Part shown: in pieces, positions 9,691-63,320 of the stretch | Layout of the letters: the number at the start of each line of letters is the position of its first letter | How positions within the stretch are numbered: position 1 is the stretch's first letter | NCBI GenBank assembly: GCA_963782595.1 | Contig: CAWAKJ010000003.1 | Span: 707,789 to 771,788, forward strand | DNA: 64,000 nt | Source: Vicinamibacterales bacterium | GTDB lineage: Bacteria > Acidobacteriota > Vicinamibacteria > Vicinamibacterales > JAMQPK01 | Direction of reading: 5' to 3' | Notes under the pieces: model-generated | Databases searched by the model: none | The model's input: only the letters and a program-made list of their open reading frames with translations | Told to the model about the DNA's origin: nothing | Position numbers and translations under genes: made by a program

Positions 9691-9712
9691 GCGCCGATCA
9701 TATGCCACGGCG

Positions 9713-9830
9713 CGGTTGGTGGTGGGTGCTTGGCGGTTGGTGGTTGTTCGTGGTGGCGCGTGATGGTTCGTAGTCGTCCGTGGTAACGAGCTAACCACGA
9801 ACTACCAACCACCAACCACGAACCACCAAC
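9713..9830. repeat. heptamer-periodic repeat hairpin (TGGYGGT-like arm / CNAACCA-like arm)
   Basis: Left arm GGTTGGTGGTGGGTGCTTGGCGGTTGGTGGTTGTTCGTGG...; right arm CTAACCACGAACTACCAACCACCAACCACGAACCACCAAC is largely its complement. Confidence 0.75.
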
Positions 9831-11396: not shown

Positions 11397-11461
11397 GTTG
11401 AGATTTCGCGGGTTCGTGACCGTTCGCGACCGACGAGCCGGATTCGCGCAGGAATCTCAAC
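11397..11461. promoter_or_regulatory. candidate upstream activator site: 9-bp perfect inverted repeat GTTGAGATT-N47-AATCTCAAC
   Basis: Read directly; internal TTCGCG / CGCGAA-like submotifs; centred about 75 nt upstream of the predicted sigma-54 start site. Confidence 0.45.
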
Positions 11462-11478
11462 AATTCATCGCGTGTGTC

Positions 11479-11494
11479 TGGCAGGTGCCTTGCG
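11479..11494 (+). promoter_or_regulatory. sigma-54 (-24/-12) promoter
   Basis: TGGCAGGTGCCTTGCG fits TGGCAC-N5-TTGCW (GG-N10-GC spacing exact); followed by GGAGGG RBS (11515-11520) and ATG at 11525. Confidence 0.7.
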
Positions 11495-11524
11495 AGTCGG
11501 TACGGAGCATTCACGGAGGGCAGC

Positions 11525-11749
11525 ATGATTGCTCCTGTTCGAATCGACCACGCGTTGTGCACGTTGAAGGGCGTGTTCCTGGAAGTTCCACGGCTCGAAC
11601 TGAACATTGCGCAGGCCTGCGAGCTCACGGGTCTCGACAGTCAGACGTGCCTCGTCCTGCTTCAGGCGCTCGAACAGGCGCGATTCCTCTGGCAGCCAGA
11701 CTCGGGTCGCTTCGTGCTGAGACCCGACTGGATAACCAACGAATCCTGA
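11525..11749 (+). CDS. small winged-helix-like protein, unknown function
   Basis: 74 aa from ATG with GGAGGG RBS; [40 protein letters not shown] looks like HTH plus wing; 16 nt upstream of dnaK. Confidence 0.55.
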
Positions 11750-11765: not shown

Positions 11766-13688
11766 ATGCCAGGCAAAGTGATCGGGATTGATCTGGGCAC
11801 GACCAATTCGGTGGTCGCCGTCATTGAAGCGGGGCAGCCCGTTGTCGTCGTCAATCAGGAAGGTGCGCGAACCACTCCTTCTGTCGTGGCGCTGACCAAG
11901 GACGACGAGCGTCTGGTCGGACAGATTGCCAAGCGCCAGGCGATCACCAATCCGGAGAATACGATCTTCTCCATCAAGCGGTTCATGGGGCGCAAGTACG
12001 AGGAAGTGGCCGAAGAGATCAAGAAGGTGCCGTACAAAGTCGTACGCGCACCGAACGGCGATGCCTGGGTGGACGTTCGCGGCAAGACGTATTCGCCGCC
12101 GGAGATTTCAGCGCTCATTCTGAGAAAGCTGAAAGAGGCGGCCGAGGCCTATCTCGGCGAAAAGGTGACCGACGCGGTCATCACCGTACCCGCCTACTTC
12201 AACGACGCGCAGCGTCAGGCGACCAAGGACGCCGGGAAAATCGCGGGCCTCGAGGTCAAACGCATCATCAATGAGCCCACGGCGGCCGCGCTCGCGTACG
12301 GCCTCGACCGGAAGAAAGACGAGACGATTGCCGTCTACGACTTCGGCGGCGGCACGTTCGACATCTCGATTCTGGAAGTCGGCGATGGCGTCGTCGAAGT
12401 CAAGGCGACCAACGGCGATACGCACCTGGGCGGCGACGACCTCGATCAACGCATCATCGAATGGATCGCCGCGGAATTCAAGAAATCAGAAGGGATCGAC
12501 CTCACCACAGACCGCATGGCTCTCCAGCGGCTGAAGGAGGCGGCGGAAAAGGCGAAGGTCGAACTGTCGACGGCCCTCGAGACCGACATCAATCTGCCGT
12601 TCATCACGGCCGACGCGAGCGGCCCCAAACACCTGACGCTGAAGTTGACGCGCGCCCGCCTCGAGCAGCTCGTCGAAGACCTCCTGCAGCGGTCGATGGG
12701 CCCGGTGCGTCAGGCGCTGACCGACGCTGGTGTGGACGCAAAGTCGATCGACGAAGTGGTGCTGGTCGGCGGCATGACCCGCATGCCGCGCATTCAACAG
12801 CTCGTCAAAGATCTCTTCGGCAAGGAGCCGCATAAAGGCGTCAATCCGGATGAGGTCGTCGCGGTCGGCGCGGCGATCCAGGGGGGCGTCCTCGCCGGTG
12901 AAGTGAAGGATGTTCTGCTGCTCGACGTGACGCCGCTGTCGCTCGGCATCGAGACACTCGGCGGTGTGATGACGCGGCTGATCGAGCGAAACACCACGAT
13001 CCCGACGCGCAAGAGCGAGATTTTCTCGACCGCTGCCGACAATCAGCCGAGCGTCGAGGTGCATGTGCTGCAGGGCGAGCGTCCGTTGGCCCGGGACAAC
13101 CGGACGCTGGCGTGCTTTCAGTTGACGGGGCTGCCTCCGGCCCCCCGCGGCGTGCCGCAAATCGAAGTGACCTTCGACATCGACTCGAACGGCATCGTCA
13201 ACGCGTCGGCCAAAGACATGGCCACCGGCAAGGAGCAGAAGATCACGATTACGGCGTCGAGCGGGCTCGCCAAGGACGAAGTGGAGCGCATGGTGCGAGA
13301 GGCGCAATCACATGCGGCCGAGGACGAACGCCGGAAGGTGCTGATTGAAGCGCGCAACGAGGCCGACAGCCTCACCTATTCGGTGGAGAAGACTCTTCGC
13401 GAGAACGAAAGCCGGTTGCCCGCCGAAGAGCGCGCCCGCGTCGAATCGCTCGTCGCCGAAGTGCGCCGTCTCGCCCAGGGCGAGGATACCGAGGCGATCA
13501 GGAGCAAAGTGGCCGAGCTGCAGGCGGCATCGCACAAGCTGGCCGAGTCGATGTATCAGGCGACGGGTGCGACGGGTGCGGGAGGTGCAACAGGTGCATC
13601 AGGTGCACCTGGTGCGACAGGTGCACCAGGTGCGGCTGGAGATGTGCGAGAGGGCGAAGTGGTGGATGCGGAAACCGTGGGGGAATAG
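11766..13688 (+). CDS. dnaK: molecular chaperone DnaK (Hsp70)
   Basis: Canonical Hsp70 signatures ([28 protein letters not shown]); low-complexity (GAx)n C-terminal tail; no grpE/dnaJ adjacent. Confidence 0.97.
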
Positions 13689-18130: not shown

Positions 18131-18136
18131 GTGATT

Positions 18137-18165
18137 GTAGGCGGGTCTTGCAAGACCCGCCCTAC
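18137..18165. repeat. REP-like palindrome family A, copy 1 (bidirectional terminator position)
   Basis: GTAGGCGGGTCTTGCAAGACCCGCCCTAC between convergent genes ending at 18130 and 18162. Confidence 0.8.
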
Positions 18166-19121
18166 TGGGTGAGCGTCTGCATATTCTTTCGATCGCACCC
18201 CCGTGGCAGCGTGCCTCGTGGCGGCCTGTCGCCCGCGTAGCAGTTCGGGATGACGTAGTAGCGCTTCGCCGCTCGTGGCTGCGACGGTGGAGTTGAAGCG
18301 GCAGGCGCCGCCGCGACCGGCGCCGTACTGGGCTGCAGGAGCTGCATGTCGCCGCGATAACGCAGAATCTCGTTCGGTTCGATCATCACGTTGAACGACA
18401 ACGTTTCATAACCTGGCGCGCGCAGGTCGATGCGGTGCGGACCGGCATCGATGCTCATGGGCCATCCTGTGAAACCGAAATCGCCCGCCAGTCCAACGAA
18501 GAATCCATCGACGTATGCCTGCGCAGACGGAGGCGTCGTCAACAGCGAGAGTGATCCGCGGATTTCTTCGACGACGTCCCTGCGCGCATATTCGTCGAGG
18601 CTCGGCATCAAGTAGGGATCCGTATAGTAGGGATCCGTAAAGTAGGGCCAAATGCCGCTACCGATGAAGTCCGACTCTTGCCGCCGCGGGAGCCGCTGAA
18701 AGCGATCCCGTGGCTCAAAGCGATCAAATCGAGTCCTCGGGAAGCGATCAAATCCCCGCCGTGGGAAGCGATCATCAAATCCCGGCCTTGGAAAGTGATC
18801 AAATCCGGGCCGTGGAACGCGATCGAATTCTTGATACAGGTCGCGCCGTCCGGGGATGAAGCCGCTGAACGGGTTCGGCACCGTCAGCGCGGCAGGCATC
18901 TGCGGCAGCGGCGATGGAGGAGGCGGTACCACTCGGAATCGAGGAGGAAACCCCGTCCGCGGCGAAGGATGCCGTCCCGTCCCCGGTGAAGGTGAAGGAG
19001 ATGGCCCCGTCCGCGGAGCGGGAGCGGGTGAAGGAGTTGGCGCCGGCGTTTGCGCGATGGTGTGCGACGCAGTGGTAAGTGCCAGCGTCAGGGCAAGTAT
19101 CGCGACGGAACCAGTTTTCAT
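18162..19121 (-). CDS. secreted proline-rich repeat protein with PEGA-like C-terminal domain
   Basis: Signal peptide; P-rich tract; degenerate (R)FDRFPR / PRPGFDHF repeats; YYTDPY motifs; PEGA-like segment (AQAYVDGFFVG...PHRIDLRAPGYETLSF). Confidence 0.65.
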   Translation of the reverse strand: MKTGSVAILALTLALTTASHTIAQTPAPTPSPAPAPRTGPSPSPSPGTGRHPSPRTGFPPRFRVVPPPPSPLPQMPAALTVPNPFSGFIPGRRDLYQEFDRVPRPGFDHFPRPGFDDRFPRRGFDRFPRTRFDRFEPRDRFQRLPRRQESDFIGSGIWPYFTDPYYTDPYLMPSLDEYARRDVVEEIRGSLSLLTTPPSAQAYVDGFFVGLAGDFGFTGWPMSIDAGPHRIDLRAPGYETLSFNVMIEPNEILRYRGDMQLLQPSTAPVAAAPAASTPPSQPRAAKRYYVIPNCYAGDRPPRGTLPRGCDRKNMQTLTQ

Positions 19122-19228
19122 GGCTGCAGCTCTTTTCCTATACTAGCCCGCCCTTGCGCTGTTTGTCACAGCGAATCGGCGTCACTCAACGATTCGCCGG
19201 GCAAGCTGCGTCGGAACCCGCACGCCGT

Positions 19229-19321
19229 TCAGACGCGGCGGCGGACCTGCGCGACCAAAAAGGAGATAAGGCCAACGGCAGCGATAACCAGGAGAACGCC
19301 GACCGTCACTGTAAGACCCAT
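19229..19321 (-). CDS. candidate 30-aa single-TM peptide (below the ORF-track size cutoff)
   Basis: ATG preceded by AGAGG; translates MGLTVTVGVLLVIAAVGLISFLVAQVRRRV, a hydrophobic helix plus basic tail. Confidence 0.3.
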   Translation of the reverse strand: MGLTVTVGVLLVIAAVGLISFLVAQVRRRV

Positions 19322-19362
19322 ATAGCCTCTAATGTCTTGAGATGCAACGGGGCTGCCATTGG

Positions 19363-19392
19363 GAGCGGGCCAAAGAGCAGGACCCGCCCTAC
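19363..19392. repeat. REP-like palindrome family A, degenerate copy
   Basis: GAGCGGGCCAAAGAGCAGGACCCGCCCTAC; the right half matches the family consensus and overlaps the LysR stop codon. Confidence 0.5.
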
Positions 19393-20427: not shown

Positions 20428-21143
<716 letters not shown>

Positions 21144-21272: not shown

Positions 21273-21300
21273 TTAGGAGCTAGGGATTAGGGATTAGCGA
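21273..21300. repeat. heptamer array TAGGAGC-TAGGGAT-TAGGGAT-TAGCGAC
   Basis: Four consecutive 7-nt units read directly. Confidence 0.75.
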
Positions 21301-24823: not shown

Positions 24824-24867
24824 AAAAGGCCATCACCTGCGCAAGCGGTGATGGCCTTTTTGCTTTT
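24824..24867 (+). terminator. intrinsic terminator
   Basis: AAAAGGCCATCACC-tgcgcaagc-GGTGATGGCCTTTT followed by TGCTTTT; lies 22 nt upstream of the ABC ATPase ATG. Confidence 0.8.
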
Positions 24868-25890: not shown

Positions 25891-26731
25891 TCCATCGTCG
25901 ATCGGCCATCGTCGATCGTCTGGATGGCGCCTGTTTGCCCGCACAGTGATGGCGCGCGCGTATCCACGTCTCATCATGAACGTGCGCGAGAAATGGTGGC
26001 TCGTCTTCGACATCGTGTTGCCGCTCGTCGGCGTGTGCGCCTATGTGTTCGTGTATCGCGCCAACGACGCGCCGGCCGATCTCATCGGATTCGTCATCAT
26101 CGGCGGTGCGATGAGCGCGTACTGGATGAATGTGCTGTGGTCGATGGGCAATCAGTTGTTCTGGGAAAAAGAGACGGGCAACCTCGCACTGTACATCATG
26201 GCACCGAACTCGATGATGGCCATACTGCTCGGCATGGCGCTGGGCGGCATGGTAACGACGACGGTTCGGGCGGCGAGCATTCTCGCGATCGGCAGTCTGC
26301 TCTTCGACGTGCACTTCGCCGTGTCGAGCGTCCCCCTGCTGGCGACGGTATTCGTGCTCGCGCTCGTCGCGCTGTACGGCATGGGAATGATGTTCGCGTC
26401 GATGTTTCTGCTGCTCGGGCGTGAAGCGTGGCATCTGGTGAATCTCGCACAGGAGCCGGTGTTTCTCCTGTCGGGGACCTTCTTTCCGATCCGCAGCTTC
26501 AACTTCTGGGTCGCCGCGGGCGCATCGGTGATTCCGCTCACGCTGGCGCTCGATGCGATTCGCCAGTTGTCGTTTTCTTCCGGCGCCGCGCAGGGATTTC
26601 TCGACGTCCGTACTGAGGTGACAGTGCTGGCCGGTCTTTGCATCGTCTTCTTGTTTGTCGCAAGGTTTCTGCTGCAGCAGCTCGAACGCATGGCGATCGC
26701 TGAAGGTCGGCTGACAGAGAGCAGGGCGTGA
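25883..26731 (+). CDS. ABC-2 type permease (first of two)
   Basis: Six hydrophobic segments; start at MTSPSS overlaps the ATPase end (alternative ATG at 25949); the first codons lie in a repeat tract. Confidence 0.8.
   Translation: MTSPSSIGHRRSSGWRLFARTVMARAYPRLIMNVREKWWLVFDIVLPLVGVCAYVFVYRANDAPADLIGFVIIGGAMSAYWMNVLWSMGNQLFWEKETGNLALYIMAPNSMMAILLGMALGGMVTTTVRAASILAIGSLLFDVHFAVSSVPLLATVFVLALVALYGMGMMFASMFLLLGREAWHLVNLAQEPVFLLSGTFFPIRSFNFWVAAGASVIPLTLALDAIRQLSFSSGAAQGFLDVRTEVTVLAGLCIVFLFVARFLLQQLERMAIAEGRLTESRA
25891..25927. repeat. tandem CCATCGTCGATCG units (complement of the GATGGKC family) within the 5' end of a CDS
   Basis: TCCATCGTCGATCGGCCATCGTCGATCGTCTGGATGG read directly. Confidence 0.6.
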
Positions 26732-27575: not shown

Positions 27576-27586
27576 GACAGATCATG

Positions 27587-27680
27587 GAGGTTCGTCAGGT
27601 TCGTCAGGTTCGTAGGTTCGTGGGTTCGTTAGGTTCGCGGGTTGCGACTTACGACTTTCGACTTTCGCCTTGCGACCAAC
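27587..27680. repeat. tandem arrays (C/A)AGGTTCGT x about 6 then CGACTTT-type units
   Basis: GGAGGTTCGTCAGGTTCGTCAGGTTCGTAGGTTCGTGGGTTCGTTAGGTTCGCGGGTTGCGACTTACGACTTTCGACTTTCGCCTTGCGACCAAC between convergent genes. Confidence 0.8.
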
Positions 27681-37147: not shown

Positions 37148-37161
37148 CTGAAAATGCGAAA

Positions 37162-37208
37162 CAGGAGATTAGGAGTTCAGGAGGATTTTTCTTTCTCCTA
37201 ATCTCCTG
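37162..37208 (+). terminator. 14-bp perfect hairpin built from AGGAGAT-type heptamers
   Basis: CAGGAGATTAGGAG-(19 nt loop)-CTCCTAATCTCCTG between the permease stop and the deacetylase start. Confidence 0.5.
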
Positions 37209-37227
37209 ATCTCCTGTTGTATTTCCG

Positions 37228-40721: not shown

Positions 40722-40759
40722 ACAATCCGCGTTGCATCAACGATGCCCGCCCTGTACGC

Positions 40760-40794
40760 GTAAGGCGGGTCTTGAAGTTCAAGACCCGCCCTAC
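40760..40794. repeat. REP-like palindrome family A, copy 3
   Basis: GTAAGGCGGGTCTTGAAGTTCAAGACCCGCCCTAC just past the stop of the gene ending at 40803. Confidence 0.8.
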
Positions 40795-40802
40795 GTACGA
40801 AT

Positions 40803-45536: not shown

Positions 45537-46678
45537 AGCGATCCGGTGTCTTCTCGTGGGTGGCCGTCGCGCTGCTTTGCGTCGCGTCCGCCGTCGTGTC
45601 CGCCGTAATGTCCGGCTTTAGCCGGACTCTTCTCGCGCAGCAACCTGCGGCCTGGGCGCAATTCCGCGGAAACCCGCAACTGAGCGGCGTCGCGTCTTCC
45701 ACGCTTCCGGCGTCATTGAAGGTGCTGTGGACGTTCGACGCCGGTGAGGCAATCGAGTCGTCGGCTGCAATCGCCGACGACACGGTCTACGTGGGGTCTG
45801 CAGCGGGAGAGCTCGTGGCGCTGAATCTTCAGAACGGAAGCGTTCGCTGGAGGTACCGCACGGGCGAGATCGGCGAGTCTTCTCCGGCTGTCGCGAACGG
45901 AGTCGTTTACATCGGCGATCTCACCGGTACGTTTCACGCCGTCGATGCGAAATCCGGAAAAGCGCTGTGGACCTATAAGACGATGGGCGAAATCCGGTCA
46001 TCGCCGGTCGTGGTCGGCGATCGCGTCCTTGTCGGCTCATACGATCGTTTCTTGTACGCGCTCTCGGCCGCGAAGGGCAGCGTGCTCTGGAAGGTCGAGT
46101 TCCAGGGCTATGTGCACGCCACGCCTTCGGTCGTCGACGGCGTGGCTTACATCTCGGGCTGTGACGAGACGTTCCGCGGTATTCGTGTCGCGGACGGACG
46201 CGAGGTGCTGAATGTGCCGATCGGCGCCTACATGGGTGCGTCGGCAGTCGTGACGGGTGGAGCGGCGTACGTCGGCACGTTCGAGAACGAGGTGATTGGC
46301 ATCGATATGAAGGCGCGGAAGGTGATGTGGAGCTATCGGCATCCAGAGCGCTTGTTTCCGTATTACTCGTCGGCAGCCATCAGCCAGGACCGTGTCGTTC
46401 TGGGCGGACGCGACAAGATGGTTCACGCCCTCGACCCCAAAACAGGCAAGGCCCATTGGACGTTCATGACCAATGCGCGTGTCGAGTCGTCTCCGGCCAT
46501 TGTGGGAAACCGCGTTTTTGTCGGTTCGACCGACGGCCGATTGTACGAATTCGACCTCATCAAGGGCTCGAAGCTCTCGGACTTCGACGCGGGCGCCGCG
46601 ATTACCGCGTCGCCGGCCGTATCAAACGGCCGCCTTGTGGTCGGTACACATGACGGCCGTCTGTACTGTCTGGGGTAA
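45524..46678 (+). CDS. PQQ-like beta-propeller repeat protein (BamB-like), secreted
   Basis: Start at MRVLKRSG with signal peptide; repeated 'G.VY.G...G.L.A.D..TG...W' blades. Confidence 0.85.
   Translation: MRVLKRSGVFSWVAVALLCVASAVVSAVMSGFSRTLLAQQPAAWAQFRGNPQLSGVASSTLPASLKVLWTFDAGEAIESSAAIADDTVYVGSAAGELVALNLQNGSVRWRYRTGEIGESSPAVANGVVYIGDLTGTFHAVDAKSGKALWTYKTMGEIRSSPVVVGDRVLVGSYDRFLYALSAAKGSVLWKVEFQGYVHATPSVVDGVAYISGCDETFRGIRVADGREVLNVPIGAYMGASAVVTGGAAYVGTFENEVIGIDMKARKVMWSYRHPERLFPYYSSAAISQDRVVLGGRDKMVHALDPKTGKAHWTFMTNARVESSPAIVGNRVFVGSTDGRLYEFDLIKGSKLSDFDAGAAITASPAVSNGRLVVGTHDGRLYCLG
45610..45627. repeat. REP-like palindrome family B, copy 2 (inside a CDS)
   Basis: GTCCGGCTTTAGCCGGAC encodes ..VMSGFSRT.. 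within the predicted signal peptide region. Confidence 0.65.
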
Positions 46679-46778
46679 TCCACGATACATGCACTGCCAT
46701 ATTCTCAATTGACGATTGCCTTATTGATCGTTCGCCCGATCAATCTGGCAATTGCCAATTGCAAATGTGGCAATGCAT

Positions 46779-53829: not shown

Positions 53830-53846
53830 GTGGGTCGGATCATAAC

Positions 53847-53909
53847 GTAGGTGGTCGATGGGCGATGGTCGGTGGGCTATGGGCGATGGTCATGGTCGAT
53901 GGGCGACGG
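53847..53909. repeat. heptamer array GATGGKC x about 9
   Basis: GTAGGTGGTCGATGGGCGATGGTCGGTGGGCTATGGGCGATGGTCATGGTCGATGGGCGACGG. Confidence 0.8.
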
Positions 53910-53912
53910 ACC

Positions 53913-58786: not shown

Positions 58787-60412
58787 TTAAGCGAAGTAGC
58801 GGGCCAGCGTGGATTCGGCCGGCTTGGCGAAGTTCTTCGTTGCCAGCGACACCACAATCATCAGCAGCGCAGAAATCAATGTCATCGGGACGACAGGAAG
58901 AAGTCCCAGCACGAACGTCCCAGTGGCCCCTCGAGTCACGATGGCTCCATCACCAAGCGCCCACACCACTACCGAGGCGCCGGGTGGAGGTGGCGGAATG
59001 TTTGTCTGAACGATCGCGACGGCGCACACGGCAGCCGCGGTCCACAACGTGCTCGCCAGCGCCCCCCACCGCGTGCTGTTCTTCCAGAACAACGCCGCGA
59101 CGAGCAACGGGACGAGTGCGGCGTAGCCGGCAAACGCGTACTGCGTGGCCACGTCGAAGATCGATTGCGGAATGCGCAGAGCGATGACATACGCGACGGC
59201 CGTGACGAGGATCACGAACACACGGCCGGTGAACACCTGCATGTTCGGACCGAATCGCGCCGTCCCCTGATAGAACGTGAAGATGTCTTCGGTGAACATC
59301 GTCGATAGCGCCAGGATCTGCGAATCGCTGGCCATCACCGCAGCCATCACCGCCGCGCCGAGGAGCGCCGCCAGCCACAACGGTGCGTATCCATCCACGA
59401 GCCTCAGAATCACATCGTCGCCGGCGGCCTGCGCGCGCAACCGCGCACGGTCGCCGGGTGTCAGCTCGTTCCCCGGCGCCGCCAGCTGCGCTCGCGCCTC
59501 CAGCTTCGCCTGGATGGCCGGAACCGCCGTCGCCTGATTGGCGACGACGCCCAGGAAGACCGAGGGCATCCAGATCAGCAACATGCAAATCGGGTAGAGC
59601 ACGATCGTTTTCCGGAAGTAGGTGACGTTGCGCGCCGTCAGACAGAAGATGCAGATGTGAGGAAACGCGATCGACGACAGGGGAATGAACGTGTAGCTGA
59701 AAAAGTACAGGGGCGAGACACGCTCACGGGTCAAGAGCGGAGCTGTTGCCGGCGAGGCGAGCATGGCCTCCATGGCTTCGCGAAACCCGCCCATCCCGGC
59801 GCCGATGACGAACACCGCGATCGTGCCGAACAAGAGGAACAGCGTCGTCTGCAGCGCGTTCACCCAGGCGGTTCCGCGCATCCCGCCGAGAAACACATAC
59901 GCCATCACCACTGACGACACGATGGCGCCGCCGAGCCAGTACGGCACGACGCCGTTGGTAATCGCCTGCAGCACCGTTCCGCCGCCCATCACTGCGATGA
60001 TGATGTAGGGCACCAGCAGGACGGCCTGCACCACAAAGATGACCGTGCCGATGTGCCGGCATTCCCAGCGGTCGCGGAACATCTGCACCGGCGTCATGAA
60101 TTTGTTGCGCTTGCCGAGCGCCCACAGCCGAGTGCCGATGGCGAACAGACAGATGGGGATGACGAGCGCAGAAGAGGACGCCATCAATCCGAAGGTCACG
60201 ATGCCGTTGGCGAACGCATGGCCCGATGCGCCGAGAATCGAAAAAGCCGTCATGTTCGTCCCGAACAGCGACAGGAGGAACACGGCAGGACCAAGCGACC
60301 GGCCCGCCAGGAAGTAGTCTTCAGCGCTCGCCTGCCGCGTGGTACGGAAAGCAAAGATGCCGATGTAGAGCACGACACCGAGATACGCGAAGACAACGAG
60401 AGCGGGAATCAT
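58787..60412 (-). CDS. sodium:solute symporter (SSS) family transporter
   Basis: 541 aa, about 13-14 TM; N-terminal YFLAGRSLG motif. Confidence 0.9.
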
Positions 60413-60415
60413 TGT

Positions 60416-60634
60416 TTAGTCGCGGGGCCCATGCGGATCTTCGAGATGCGAGGGCCAGGCGACGGCGATGAGCAGCCAGAGGACGCCGGCCGACGCTACG
60501 GTGAAGGCGGCATGATAGAAAAGACCGATCGGCAGAAATCCAAAGACGAGCGGACGCGCCTCGCGCCAGAACCAGAAGTCCTGGTGCAGCACATAGAGGA
60601 GAGCCACGGCGGCGATGGCGGCGGCTTTCTGCAT
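60416..60634 (-). CDS. DUF3311-like small membrane subunit of the SSS transporter
   Basis: 72 aa, 2 TM, starts at [10 protein letters not shown], ends 3 nt before the symporter start. Confidence 0.65.
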
Positions 60635-60664
60635 CGTTGGATCTTGAGAATATACTACCGACCT

Positions 60665-61744
60665 ATGACGGAGTCCGAGAAGGCGCGAGCTGCAGTCGAC
60701 GCCCATGTGCGCGAGATCGTCAACTGGCATTTCGATCCGGCGACGGGATCGCCGTTCTGGCTGGATTACGCGACAAAGCTCGGCTGGGATCCGCGGAAGG
60801 AAATCGGCGGCTTCGGCGATCTGTCGCGCTTCCCGGCATTCGAGGACGAATGGCTGCGCGGCGGACCGGTCCAACGCTGGATTCCCCGCGGATTCAATGG
60901 AAAACCGATTTACGTGTTCGAGACGGGCGGTACGACCGGCATTCCGAAAACGCGTGTCGCGTTCGACGACTTCCGGACAGACTATGAGCTCTTCAGCGCC
61001 ACGTTGCCCGACGAACACTTTCCCAAGGGTTCGAACTGGTTGATGCTCGGGCCGTCGGGCCCGCGGCGGCTTCGTCTGGCCGTGGAGCATCTGGCTCAAT
61101 TTCGCGGCGGCATCTCCTTCTGCGTCGATCTCGATCCGCGGTGGGTCATCAAGCTGATCAAAAAAGGTTGGATGGAGCATCTCGAGGCCTACAAGGGCCA
61201 CGTGATCGATCAGGCTGTCTCGATTCTGCAGGCCGGACACGACGTGCGGTGCATGTTCACGACGCCGAAGCTGCTCGAGTCGCTGGCGCTGCGGCTCGAG
61301 TCGATGGGCACCACCATTCGCCAGGCGGGGATCACGGGGATCTTCTCGGGCGGCACAGAGTTCACGCCCCAGTGGAACCGGTTTGCGCACGAAGAGCTGC
61401 TCGACGGGGCGTACATGACCCCCACCTATGGCAACACGCTGATGGGCCTGGCCGCCAGCGCTCCCACCGGCCCTGAGAACAACTATAAGATCACGTATCA
61501 CGCGCCGCAGCCGCGTGCGGTCATCGAGGTGGTCGACTTCGACGACCCGTCGAAGCTCGTCGGCTACGGTCAGACCGGACGGGTGAAGCTGACAACGTTG
61601 ACGAAGGAATTTTTCGTGCCGGGATTCCTGGAGCGCGACGAAGGCGAGCGCGAACCTCCGCACGAGAAGTACCCGTGGGATGGAGTCAGCGGGGTCAGGC
61701 CATTTAGAGGCTTCGCCGCGACGACGACGGTTGGAGTGTACTAA
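60665..61744 (+). CDS. PaaK/F390-synthetase/LuxE-like adenylate-forming enzyme (COG1541-type) without a C-terminal lid domain
   Basis: Start at MTESEKARA; [12 protein letters not shown] (vs SSGTTGKPT), [44 protein letters not shown] (vs GELV.TsLTKE..P.IRYRTGD). Confidence 0.7.
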
Positions 61745-61750
61745 CGGTAG

Positions 61751-61894
61751 CGGTTCTAGGTTCTACGTTCTTGGTTCTGGGTTCCGGTTCAAGGTTCCGG
61801 ACCTCAGAGGCAGAACCTGGAATCCAGAACCTGGAACCAGAACCCAGAACCCAGAACCCAGAACCTAGAACCCAGAACCCAGAACCTAGAACCG
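61751..61894. repeat. 144-nt heptamer-repeat hairpin: (GGTTCTN)x7 arm and (AGAACCY)x12 arm
   Basis: Outer 14 nt CGGTTCTAGGTTCT (61751-61764) pair perfectly with AGAACCTAGAACCG (61881-61894); fills the spacer between two co-oriented genes and ends 1 nt before an ATG. Confidence 0.9.
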
Positions 61895-61895
61895 T

Positions 61896-63320
61896 ATGAT
61901 TCAGATTCCCGTTCTCCGCTGGGGTCAGCCTTATTCGAGCATGGACGTCGATGAGGTGAAGCACTTTCTTACCGGCGAGCCAATTGCGAAGGTGGGACGC
62001 GCCAACGCGGGGCTGATTCAGCGCGACATGCGCAAGGCCTCGAACGCCCGCGACGTGCTGCGGAAAATACCGGTGGCCGAGCTCGTCGCCCGGATGAAGG
62101 TGGCCGGCGATCTCTACATGAACGCCGAGCTTCCGCTCGGCGACGGATCGCAGACGCCCGACGACTTTGCGAAACAGCAGTCGGCGAGCACGGGCCTTCC
62201 AGAGGCGTTGTGCCGCGCGAACATGAAAAAAAATCAGTTCGTGCTGGGCGAGATGGGCAACATTCTCCGGTCGCTCACGCGCGGGCTCGATTTGACTGTT
62301 CTCACCACCGGCTACGGCGAAGAGAACGGCGTGCCGATCAGCTATCAGGCGCAGAGCCCGGTGCTCGGGCTCGTCCTTCCCTCGAACTCGCCGGGCGTCC
62401 ACACGCTGTGGTTGCCGATCATCCCGATGCAGATCGGCCTGGTACTGAAGCCGGGACCTCAGGAGCCCTGGACGCCGTATCGTGTCGCCGAGGCGTTTTT
62501 TCAGGCGGGGATCCCGCGAGAAGCCATTTCCATTTATCCCGGCGAAGCCGAAGTGGGTGCTGCCGTGGTCTCGGCGTGCGGCCGCAGTCTCATCTTCGGT
62601 GGAACCGCGACGGTCGAGCGCTACAAGGGCAACCCCCGCGTGCAGGTACACGGACCGGGTTTTTCGAAGATCGTGTTCGGCGATGACTGCGTCGACGACT
62701 GGGAGCGCTATCTCGACATGATGGTCGACAGTGTGTTCCTCAACAGCGGCCGAGGGTGCATCAACTGCTCGGGCATCTGGGTCAGCCGCCACAGTCGAGA
62801 CATCGCCGACGCGCTGGGGAAGCGGCTGGCGTCTATTCAGGCACTGCCGCCGGACCATCCGGATGCGAGCCTCGCGGCGTTCACGGTGCCGGGCATGGCC
62901 GACGCCATCTCGCAATCGATCGATGTCGATCTCAAGCAGCCCGGCGTGACCGACGTCACCGCCAGGTATCGCGACACCCCGCGAGTGGTGAGGAACGGGA
63001 AGGCCGAATACCTGCTGCCGACCGTCGTGCATTGTGAATCTCCCGAAGCCGCGATTGCGTCGAAGGAGTACATGTTCCCGTTCGTCACCGTCGTCGAATG
63101 CCCCGAGTCGAAGCTCGTCGAGGCGATGGGGCCGACGCTCGTCTGCTCGGCGGTCACCGGGAAGCCCGAACTGCGCCGTGCGCTCCTCGATGCGACGCAC
63201 ATCGATCGCTTGAATCTCGGTCCGGTGCCGACGATTCGCCTCAACTGGCTCCAGCCGCACGAAGGCAACATCGTCGATTTCCTCTACCGTCCGCGCGCCC
63301 TGCAAACCGCGATGGTGTGA
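61896..63320 (+). CDS. aldehyde dehydrogenase superfamily protein (possibly LuxC-like acyl-CoA reductase)
   Basis: 474 aa; catalytic-Cys block FLNSGRGCINCSGIWV (vs F.N.GQ.C.A); PSNSPGV and GPGFSK blocks; no SD upstream. Confidence 0.8.
   Translation: MIQIPVLRWGQPYSSMDVDEVKHFLTGEPIAKVGRANAGLIQRDMRKASNARDVLRKIPVAELVARMKVAGDLYMNAELPLGDGSQTPDDFAKQQSASTGLPEALCRANMKKNQFVLGEMGNILRSLTRGLDLTVLTTGYGEENGVPISYQAQSPVLGLVLPSNSPGVHTLWLPIIPMQIGLVLKPGPQEPWTPYRVAEAFFQAGIPREAISIYPGEAEVGAAVVSACGRSLIFGGTATVERYKGNPRVQVHGPGFSKIVFGDDCVDDWERYLDMMVDSVFLNSGRGCINCSGIWVSRHSRDIADALGKRLASIQALPPDHPDASLAAFTVPGMADAISQSIDVDLKQPGVTDVTARYRDTPRVVRNGKAEYLLPTVVHCESPEAAIASKEYMFPFVTVVECPESKLVEAMGPTLVCSAVTGKPELRRALLDATHIDRLNLGPVPTIRLNWLQPHEGNIVDFLYRPRALQTAMV

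Follow-up and report, generated by a model that had tools for sequence, protein, structure and literature searches.

A window of 64,000 nt from a Vicinamibacterales bacterium (contig CAWAKJ010000003.1, positions 707,789 to 771,788 of the forward strand) contains, at 61751-61894 in window coordinates, a 144-nt hairpin built from heptamer repeats, which fills the spacer between an acyl-CoA/AMP-ligase-like gene and an aldehyde dehydrogenase (ALDH) gene and ends 1 nt before the ATG of the latter. The question raised by this locus is whether such a structure is a device for controlling the downstream gene or has another origin. The explanation favored here takes it as two heptanucleotide microsatellites in inverted orientation, which probably arose from a clade-wide mutational habit and are not a dedicated regulatory device. 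Sequence, folding and comparative tests of 61751-61894 revealed no evidence of a new regulatory mechanism or dedicated switch. The class to which the element belongs is read as long simple sequence repeats (SSRs), because what its members have in common is not a structure but heptamers repeated in tandem within non-coding DNA.

The Hairpin at 61751-61894

Tandem Repeats Finder (TRF) detected two arrays of period 7, one at 61752-61797 (6.7 copies of GGTTCTA) and the other at 61811-61893 (12.0 copies of CAGAACC). Unit decomposition resolved the element into a 5' arm of about seven GGTTCTN units (61751-61797), a non-repeat center of 13 nt (61798-61810), which forms the loop region of the minimum free energy (MFE) structure, and a 3' arm of about 12 NAGAACC units (61811-61894), all on the plus strand. 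The inner units of the 5' arm are degenerate (GGTTCC, GGTTCAA). The outer six units of the 3' arm form a higher-order repeat, CAGAACC-CAGAACC-TAGAACC, and this arm has five surplus units that are able to remain unpaired beside the AUG.

The hairpin is real and exceeds chance expectation, as the first-pass annotation of this DNA had proposed from the sequence letters. RNA folding of 61735-61910 gave -81.9 kcal/mol, compared with -46.7 ± 4.1 kcal/mol in 200 dinucleotide shuffles, none of which matched it (z -8.65), the hairpin partner score was 33.5-35 against 6-8 in the control, and the pattern GGTTCTNGGTTCT matched 12 times where 0.16 matches were expected. The perfect pairing of the outermost 14 nt (CGGTTCTAGGTTCT / AGAACCTAGAACCG) and the many slipped registers described in the same annotation were both confirmed, the latter by at least nine inverted-repeat pairings of 61751-61894. 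Complementarity of the arms was 86% over the outermost 37 nt (61751-61787 / 61858-61894), and reached its best value, 88%, over 50-nt arms. In the window, Rfam 15 gave 0 matches at gathering score, and its E-value mode returned only sub-threshold matches to generic long hairpins (microRNA precursors).

Comparison of the Ligase-ALDH Junction among Relatives

The upstream stop and the ALDH start were located in 121 sequences (the window and 120 loci), and the junction between them was found in three states. Many lineages have no spacer at all, with a TGATG-type overlap or just 1-20 nt between the genes. This arrangement, which is expected of coupled genes, is probably ancestral, and it supports the earlier description of the spacer as lying within an operon. 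In the second state, the junction holds short-period arrays of unrelated, lineage-specific 7-9-nt units, which are often hairpins. Their units were AATGCTG/TTCAGCA, GGTGCGTA/ACCTACGC, AAATGAC/TTTGTCA, GGTCGTT/ACGACTA and GGCAGAG/CTGCC.., together with one recurrent family, CACGAAAN/NTTTCGTG. Other arrays at the junction are direct-only (GGTTCAA in eight copies, GAACTTTA in four to nine), and those of loci L005 and L006 are direct-only and unstructured. In the third state, the spacer holds REP-like palindromes that are rich in G+C and begin with a GTAG head, with or without arrays beside them.

The window and its closest relatives (L001, L002, and L011) have homologous arms with a common GGTTC core, but the unit is 7 nt long in the window and 8-9 nt in the relatives, where it reads GGTTCG(T)NN (GGTTCGTNN / NNACGAACC). 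The numbers of units in the 5' and 3' arms also differ, being 7/12 in the window, 4/10 in L001, 6-7/10 in L002 and 6/9 in L011. Both arms have changed together, with GGTTCT/AGAACC in the window corresponding to GGTTCG/CGAACC in the relatives, so that where the window has T in one arm and A in its partner, the relatives have G and C. The spacers align with 63-68% identity and 38-56 gap columns, compared with 80-92% identity and 0-6 gaps in the flanking coding DNA. Since unit length, unit number and paired bases all differ among close relatives, the arrays turn over through the gain, loss and replacement of units, and the evolution of one arm is not independent of the other. A longer 3' arm was considered as a general rule, but although it is seen in the window and in the three relatives nearest to it, unrelated hairpins do not follow it.

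Repetitive extragenic palindromic (REP) sequences and bacterial interspersed mosaic elements (BIMEs) are imperfect palindromes of proteobacteria, dispersed as many copies of one 20-40-nt sequence that has a conserved GTAG-type head and is associated with REP-associated tyrosine transposases (RAYTs). They occupy transcribed extragenic spacers in operons and at 3' ends, are absent from promoters, and form stem-loops that can stabilize upstream mRNA. REP-like palindromes were observed in the ALDH-upstream spacers of L007, L019, L031, L044, L062, L084, L121, L122, L139, and L159 (for example, GTAGCGCAGGCCTTCAGGCCTGC), and one with a GTAG/CTAC end lies at 40759-40795 of the window (CGTAAGGCGGGTCTTGAA / TTCAAGACCCGCCCTACG). 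They occur in co-directional spacers, sometimes adjoining heptamer arrays, and may represent a RAYT-type REP family of these Acidobacteria.

The presence of such palindromes in the same spacer of other lineages, and of one in the window, is what would favor a dispersed mobile element as the source of the hairpin, either a miniature inverted-repeat transposable element or a REP mobilized by a RAYT transposase that inserted in the spacer. Like REP/BIME elements, the palindrome at 61751-61894 lies in a co-directional extragenic spacer between genes whose orthologs overlap. Unlike them, it is a unique tandem-repeat hairpin without a GTAG head, and the GGTTCTN array was not seen again anywhere else in the window, nor in 160 related loci. 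Neither a terminal inverted repeat distinct from the array nor a target-site duplication was present, and an insertion of this kind is extremely improbable.

Two further observations concern the junctions of this operon and the recurrent unit family. The spacer after ALDH, which is 4 nt long in the window, is filled with lineage-specific arrays in L006, L008, L012, L026, L028, L036, L040, and L042 (at about 11420-11580), in L012 by a 12-mer in 13.6 copies (CGGAGCCGGGGT); as this second spacer too is filled in many relatives, several junctions of the operon can be regarded as array hot spots. The 8-mer family CACGAAAN/NTTTCGTG forms hairpin arrays at several different spacers in many metagenome-assembled genomes (MAGs), and was seen in L013, L019 (2915-2996 and 5964-6040), L022, L033, L036, L041, L094, L101, L122, L125, and L151. 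In this it differs from the units found elsewhere, which are specific to their loci, and it may be used throughout a genome in the manner of the cyanobacterial short tandemly repeated repetitive (STRR) sequences or of GGGAATC, both of which are considered below.

Repeat Arrays in the Window and in Related Loci

A census of arrays was made with TRF and a home-made, codon-bias gene caller, and covered the window together with 160 loci, all drawn from the surroundings of one operon; the window and L001-L043 formed an array-rich set. Twelve arrays with a period of 5-12 and three or more copies were present in the window, eight of them of period 7, whereas shuffling the window in 200-nt blocks gave a mean of 0.78 arrays and a maximum of four. 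Eleven were intergenic and one was coding, although 90% of the window is coding. The first-pass annotation had described a window-wide class of locus-specific 7-9-nt arrays, mostly in inverted arms. The class itself is real, but its inverted architecture was overstated for the window, as only three of about nine loci are hairpins (9709-9829, 37148-37227 and 61751-61894). At least five are direct arrays, and the four that were folded (53830-53912, 27576-27679, 25891-25945 and 21057-21143) showed no structure, with z values of about 0.

Period 7 was dominant in the census, first in 86 of 141 arrays and then, in the larger set of 191 intergenic arrays, in 116, followed by period 8 (45) and period 9 (21). 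In the array-rich set, 15% of the spacers between co-directional genes held an array, compared with 18% between convergent and 11% between divergent genes. A roughly 3-fold depletion per base in divergent spacers was not relied on; the per-base density figure is circular because the arrays themselves create spacer length, and the rates per spacer are similar. Arrays were common in Vicinamibacterales-like loci, while almost none were seen in loci of Gemmataceae, other Planctomycetota or Marinacidobacterales that carry the same operon. A complementary partner array accompanied 104 of the 179 arrays outside divergent spacers, against 0 in a reversed-sequence control.

Units were locus-specific and highly diverse, the commonest canonical heptamer accounting for only four of 86. 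Two unit families recurred across MAGs, an ACGAACC type and the CACGAAAN type, but neither was universal; no motif was common to units across the 1.1 Mb examined, and the genes beside arrays were functionally unrelated to each other. This diversity bears on the idea of an element acting at the level of DNA, which might be a multi-site binding platform for a nucleoid or regulatory protein, or a cruciform affecting replication or supercoiling. Strand-symmetric palindromy and the regular spacing of the repeats would suit such a role. However, units that are unrelated between loci would be unreadable by a single protein, half of the arrays are non-palindromic, and a spacing of 7 nt does not match the helical phase of DNA, all of which make a DNA-level element very unlikely. 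A binding site for a single protein was rejected outright, given the diverse units and the lack of a universal family.

Origin of the Hairpin and Possible Selection

The favored explanation, of a microsatellite pair, can be set out as a series of steps. Units of 7 nt, and less often of 8-9 nt, would expand through replication slippage in non-coding DNA, in this case within a spacer between genes that, as comparison of the junctions shows, ancestrally overlapped or nearly abutted. Intrastrand template switching between the quasi-palindromic arms, which is the likeliest cause of their matching, would copy unit variants from arm to arm; we infer it because partner arrays are too frequent for independence and because arms change in concert. 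The hairpin would grow by one unit after another, while slippage could still act on either arm alone (7 vs 12 units). The array is presumably transcribed within a bicistronic mRNA and would fold there as a long, imperfect stem-loop with many registers, which may be tolerated because initiation is mostly independent of a Shine-Dalgarno (SD) sequence and because the surplus 3' units keep a C/A-rich single strand before the AUG. Its most probable effect would be quantitative and REP-like, in that it would impede 3'->5' exonucleases or cause pausing and thereby shift the ratio of upstream to downstream product, but not in an on/off manner.

Several points weigh against this explanation. Partnered arrays made up 61% (95/155) of those in co-directional spacers, 38% (9/24) in convergent and 17% (2/12) in divergent ones, and this difference in the hairpin-type share, divergent against the rest, gave a Fisher p of 0.006, a value obtained with a home-made gene caller, only 12 divergent-spacer arrays and loci around one operon. 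Of all the results, only the enrichment of hairpins on the 3' side of genes points toward function, and a purely neutral DNA process does not predict such a placement bias without extra assumptions. Possible ones are that hairpins are purged from promoters, or that they are seeded from 3' hairpins such as the REP-like palindromes. In addition, the joint change of the two arms would be produced equally by selection for pairing, and the slippage, template switching, spacer transcription and effect on mRNA are all read from sequence.

The main alternative is a selected intercistronic RNA stem-loop, that is, a REP/BIME-like hairpin or an operon-internal stabilizer or processing hairpin that sets the ratio of ligase to ALDH. 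It could do so by shielding the upstream cistron from 3'->5' decay, by partial termination or pausing, or by shielding the long untranslated spacer from Rho loading, and tandem repeats would be the cheapest way to grow its stem. Such selection is possible but rather unlikely. Besides the concentration of hairpins 3' of genes and the joint alteration of arms in close relatives, it is favored by the very stable stem (z -8.65) and by the repeated gain of hairpins at the ligase-ALDH junction, where they comprise unrelated repeat units and also REP-like GTAG palindromes. Bacterial transcript ends are, moreover, commonly marked by 3' stem-loops without U-tracts (PMC13613805). Opposed to this are the unequal arms, the many relatives without any spacer, and the many equivalent spacers that hold direct-only, unstructured arrays, including the same junction in L005 and L006, while the placement bias can also stem from purging in promoter regions.

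Selection on RNA was also looked for in strand asymmetry, the rationale being that stems tuned as RNA should favor G·U mismatches on the sense strand. The spacer at 61751-61894 folded less stably in the sense orientation (-80.4 kcal/mol) than in the antisense (-96.8 kcal/mol), a deficit of 16 kcal/mol for the mRNA strand. Among 57 distinct co-directional hairpin spacers, 29 were more stable as the sense strand and 23 as the antisense (Wilcoxon p = 0.17). Neither comparison revealed an RNA-strand (G·U) signature, and sense versus antisense stability thus gave no indication of selection on RNA.

A bolder proposal is that the arrays are a selected, lineage-specific class of evolvable intercistronic hairpins in Vicinamibacterales, which preserve termination-reinitiation coupling between formerly overlapping genes; this is improbable. 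If it were true, the base of the helix would bring stop and start together, in a shunt-like bypass of 144 nt, and in the outer register about 7 unpaired nt lie between the TAA and the AUG. The balance between the two products would be adjusted through gain and loss of units and the choice of register, and the complementarity of the arms would be kept by selection, not by conversion. A hairpin flush with stop and start codons was set aside as evidence of coupling, as it is equally expected from growth of an array in an originally tiny spacer.

Possible Control of ALDH Expression

The stem ends 1 nt before an ATG (61896) that has no SD sequence, many slipped registers are available, and unit number varies among relatives. 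On such grounds the hairpin could be a control element that sequesters or defines the ALDH start, senses temperature, or acts as a slippage-driven phase switch, as the first-pass annotation had suggested. This was found to be very improbable. The absence of any GGAG-like motif upstream of the ATG was confirmed, but it is not special to this gene. Only 45 of 251 predicted starts (about 18%, compared with 7-10% background; start calls are crude) carry GGAG or GAGG at -18..-4, which leaves about 82% without, and starts lacking an SD are the rule in the source genome.

Sequestering of the initiation region also appears weak. In a 261-nt context, the MFE was -115.2 kcal/mol, that of the outer register -112.2 kcal/mol, and that with -22..+10 forced open -109.5 kcal/mol. 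This means that the registers are nearly isoenergetic, the outer one lying 3 kcal/mol above the MFE, and that opening the start region costs just 5.7 kcal/mol. The ALDH AUG was 75-77% unpaired in the ensemble. The start region is readily open because the 5' arm can pair with inner units, and so free the C/A-rich 3' units beside the AUG. A thermosensor is implausible, as there is no SD to mask, the AUG is about 75% unpaired already, and a core helix of about -80 kcal/mol cannot melt at physiological temperatures. For a phase switch, the array would need to lie in an open reading frame (ORF) or a promoter, whereas it is found between a stop and a start codon, is not associated with promoter hexamers, and has metabolic and transport genes as neighbors. 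Genes flanking members of the class are of housekeeping type and mutually unrelated, and the arrays of relatives at the same junction differ in architecture or are absent.

The suggestion that the hairpin is an efficient terminator or insulator fared little better, and is unlikely. Intrinsic (Rho-independent) terminators have a G+C-rich stem of about 5-20 bp with a U-tract directly after it, but the sequence after this stem is GUAUGAUUCAG, without a U-tract. A scan of 60300-62300 detected neither a promoter-like nor a terminator-like site in the spacer (61745-61895), and both an autonomous promoter for ALDH and a canonical terminator were rejected for that reason. In four hairpin-bearing lineages ALDH is under purifying selection (92-94% amino acid identity against 80-92% nucleotide identity), and transcription and translation must therefore pass the hairpin. 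Elsewhere in the window, upstream of an ABC-transporter operon, a bidirectional terminator of canonical A-tract/stem/T-tract design was observed at 24824-24860 (AAAAGGCCATCACC - 9 nt - GGTGATGGCCTTTT), which indicates that the genome uses ordinary U-tract terminators.

Relationship to Known Repeats

The first-pass annotation did not recognize the class as described, which proved to be wrong, since the kind is already known: intergenic heptanucleotide SSRs, convergent hairpin-capable pairs among them, and cases within operons have all been reported. Long SSRs with units of 5-11 nt occur in intergenic DNA as head-to-tail arrays beyond chance, heptamers being the most abundant, and slippage has been proposed as their cause (Mrázek et al. 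2007, as summarized in PMC4679880 and PMC4692102). As far as those summaries go, the present arrays resemble them in these respects, in the confinement of units that are not a multiple of three to non-coding DNA, and in a sporadic, lineage-specific distribution across phyla. The element at 61751-61894 agrees with this pattern, with 6.7 and 12.0 copies, an intergenic position, the commonest unit length, and copy number and variants that differ among close relatives. Judged against the same summaries, the differences are the large share of arrays that form complementary inverted pairs and the occupation of 11-18% of spacers.

A close counterpart is found in Xanthomonas campestris and X. axonopodis, where 70-75 cases of two convergent GGGAATC sites, capable of forming hairpins or cruciforms, were reported (Rehm et al. 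2015, PMC4692102). Those repeats are 89-93% intergenic, lie mostly between co-directional and seldom between divergent genes, and at a shared junction vary strongly in length and sequence from one of these sister species to the other (PMC4692102). The hairpin at 61751-61894 is likewise a pair of complementary arrays close together on opposite strands in a spacer. In Xanthomonas, however, one G-rich unit with G-quadruplex potential is used throughout the genome, whereas the present units are specific to their loci (GGTTCTN to 61751-61894) and lack G-tracts. The STRR heptamers of the cyanobacteria Calothrix, Nostoc, and Anabaena, and the GGGGATT repeats of Nostoc, are also intergenic and include intra-operon cases, such as pecE-pecF (PMC4692102). 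The present tandem heptamers share this placement, but STRR1-3 are a few units reused genome-wide, with few inverted pairs reported, and belong to another phylum, while the units found here are diverse and the host is an acidobacterium.

Local origin and fast evolution are features shared with the tandem repeats of Borgs, which arise locally, evolve quickly, and have region-specific, direct units (PMC9879509), and with the TAACTGA heptamers of Beggiatoaceae, which are placed directly upstream of start codons, consist of one unit genome-wide, and are reported to include only one indirect repeat (PMC4679880). Both differ from the present arrays in being direct repeats rather than inverted pairs, and in their hosts. 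The literature search found no case of long SSRs described in Acidobacteria or Vicinamibacterales, nor descriptions of locus-specific units with a high hairpin share or of concerted change of arms.

Flanking Genes and Other Arrays of the Window

The upstream gene (60431-61744, plus strand) is a crude gene call with an approximate start and a weak AMP-binding match; it ends with TAA at 61742-61744, and its C-terminus (...TTVGVY*) is conserved in orthologous loci. The downstream gene (61896-63320, plus strand) belongs to the ALDH superfamily (Pfam Aldedh, 2.7e-20); its ATG and N-terminus are conserved in an alignment of orthologs, and a glycosyltransferase gene begins 4 nt past its stop. The source of the window, which has a G+C content of about 63%, is a Vicinamibacterales-like soil acidobacterium, because ALDH orthologs with 92-94% amino acid identity are found in Vicinamibacterales MAGs. 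More distant orthologs occur in other Acidobacteriota, Gemmataceae and other Planctomycetota. An exact-protein look-up returned no record of the ALDH product, and a scan for strain-level alleles gave a closest metagenome ALDH match of 92% amino acid identity. One metagenome contig (L082, Ga0184625_10000076) starts at residue 25 of a 92%-identical ALDH, and may have broken at or near a repeat-filled spacer; if so, arrays fragment short-read assemblies.

Two other spacers of the window contain hairpins. At 9709-9829 (minus strand), a heptamer hairpin array that reads GGTGGTT... / ...ACCAACC on the mRNA occupies the whole gap from a DUF5335 gene to a DUF423 gene (Pfam), both on the minus strand, with an inverted partner score of 18.5 and a fold of -60.2 kcal/mol (z -4.9). 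The second, at 37148-37227 (plus strand), is an 8-mer array (CAGGAGAT / ATCTCCTG) with perfect 14-nt arms and a fold of -40.4 kcal/mol (z -7.0); it is followed by UUGUAUUU and separates the genes of an ABC-2 permease and a polysaccharide deacetylase (Pfam).

Direct arrays are represented by eight copies of TGGTCGA in a co-directional spacer at 53830-53912 (minus strand; fold z -0.14, no inverted partner), between a histidine-phosphatase-family gene and a major facilitator superfamily transporter gene. Its transcript is C/A-rich, G-poor and unstructured (CCCAUCGACCAUGACC...), the composition expected of a Rho-loading site. A convergent spacer at 27576-27679 holds two adjacent direct arrays, AGGTTCGT in six copies and CGACTTT in 4.6 (fold z -0.83), and at 21057-21143 eight copies of AAGTAAA are followed by CCCCTT in 3.5 (fold z +0.5). 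A short array of 7/14-nt period occurs between ABC ATPase and permease genes at 25891-25945 (plus strand). The direct array at 18610-18828 lies in a large, apparently non-coding or weakly coding stretch (18590-18850, within 18131-19388), where a 15-mer (AAGTAGGGATCCGTA) in 2.5 copies and a 24/51-nt unit (AAAGCGATCAAATCCCGGCCGTGG) in 4.5 copies were seen, and the TAGGGAT motif of this region recurs at 21281-21297.

The sole coding array (13560-13639) is an in-frame 9-mer, situated toward the 3' end of an ORF of 640 aa, where it encodes GATGATGAGGATGA... (GATGA...). Having a period of 9, it fits the rule that only units of a multiple of three persist in coding DNA. An A+T-rich imperfect palindrome of a different kind, with 42-nt arms that are 81% complementary and a 6-nt loop, lies at 46689-46778, in the spacer after a gene ending at 46678, and contains short repeats of the CAATTG/TTGCCA type.

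Significance

Repeat arrays fill roughly a tenth of the spacer DNA in these abundant soil Acidobacteria, and will probably both interrupt assemblies made from short reads and misguide predictors of terminators, small RNAs and gene starts. The ligase-ALDH junction, which in some 120 lineages is empty or occupied by a direct array, a hairpin or a REP-like palindrome, represents a natural experiment on the birth and growth of microsatellites and palindromes, and could show whether it is conversion between arms or selection that keeps the arms matched.

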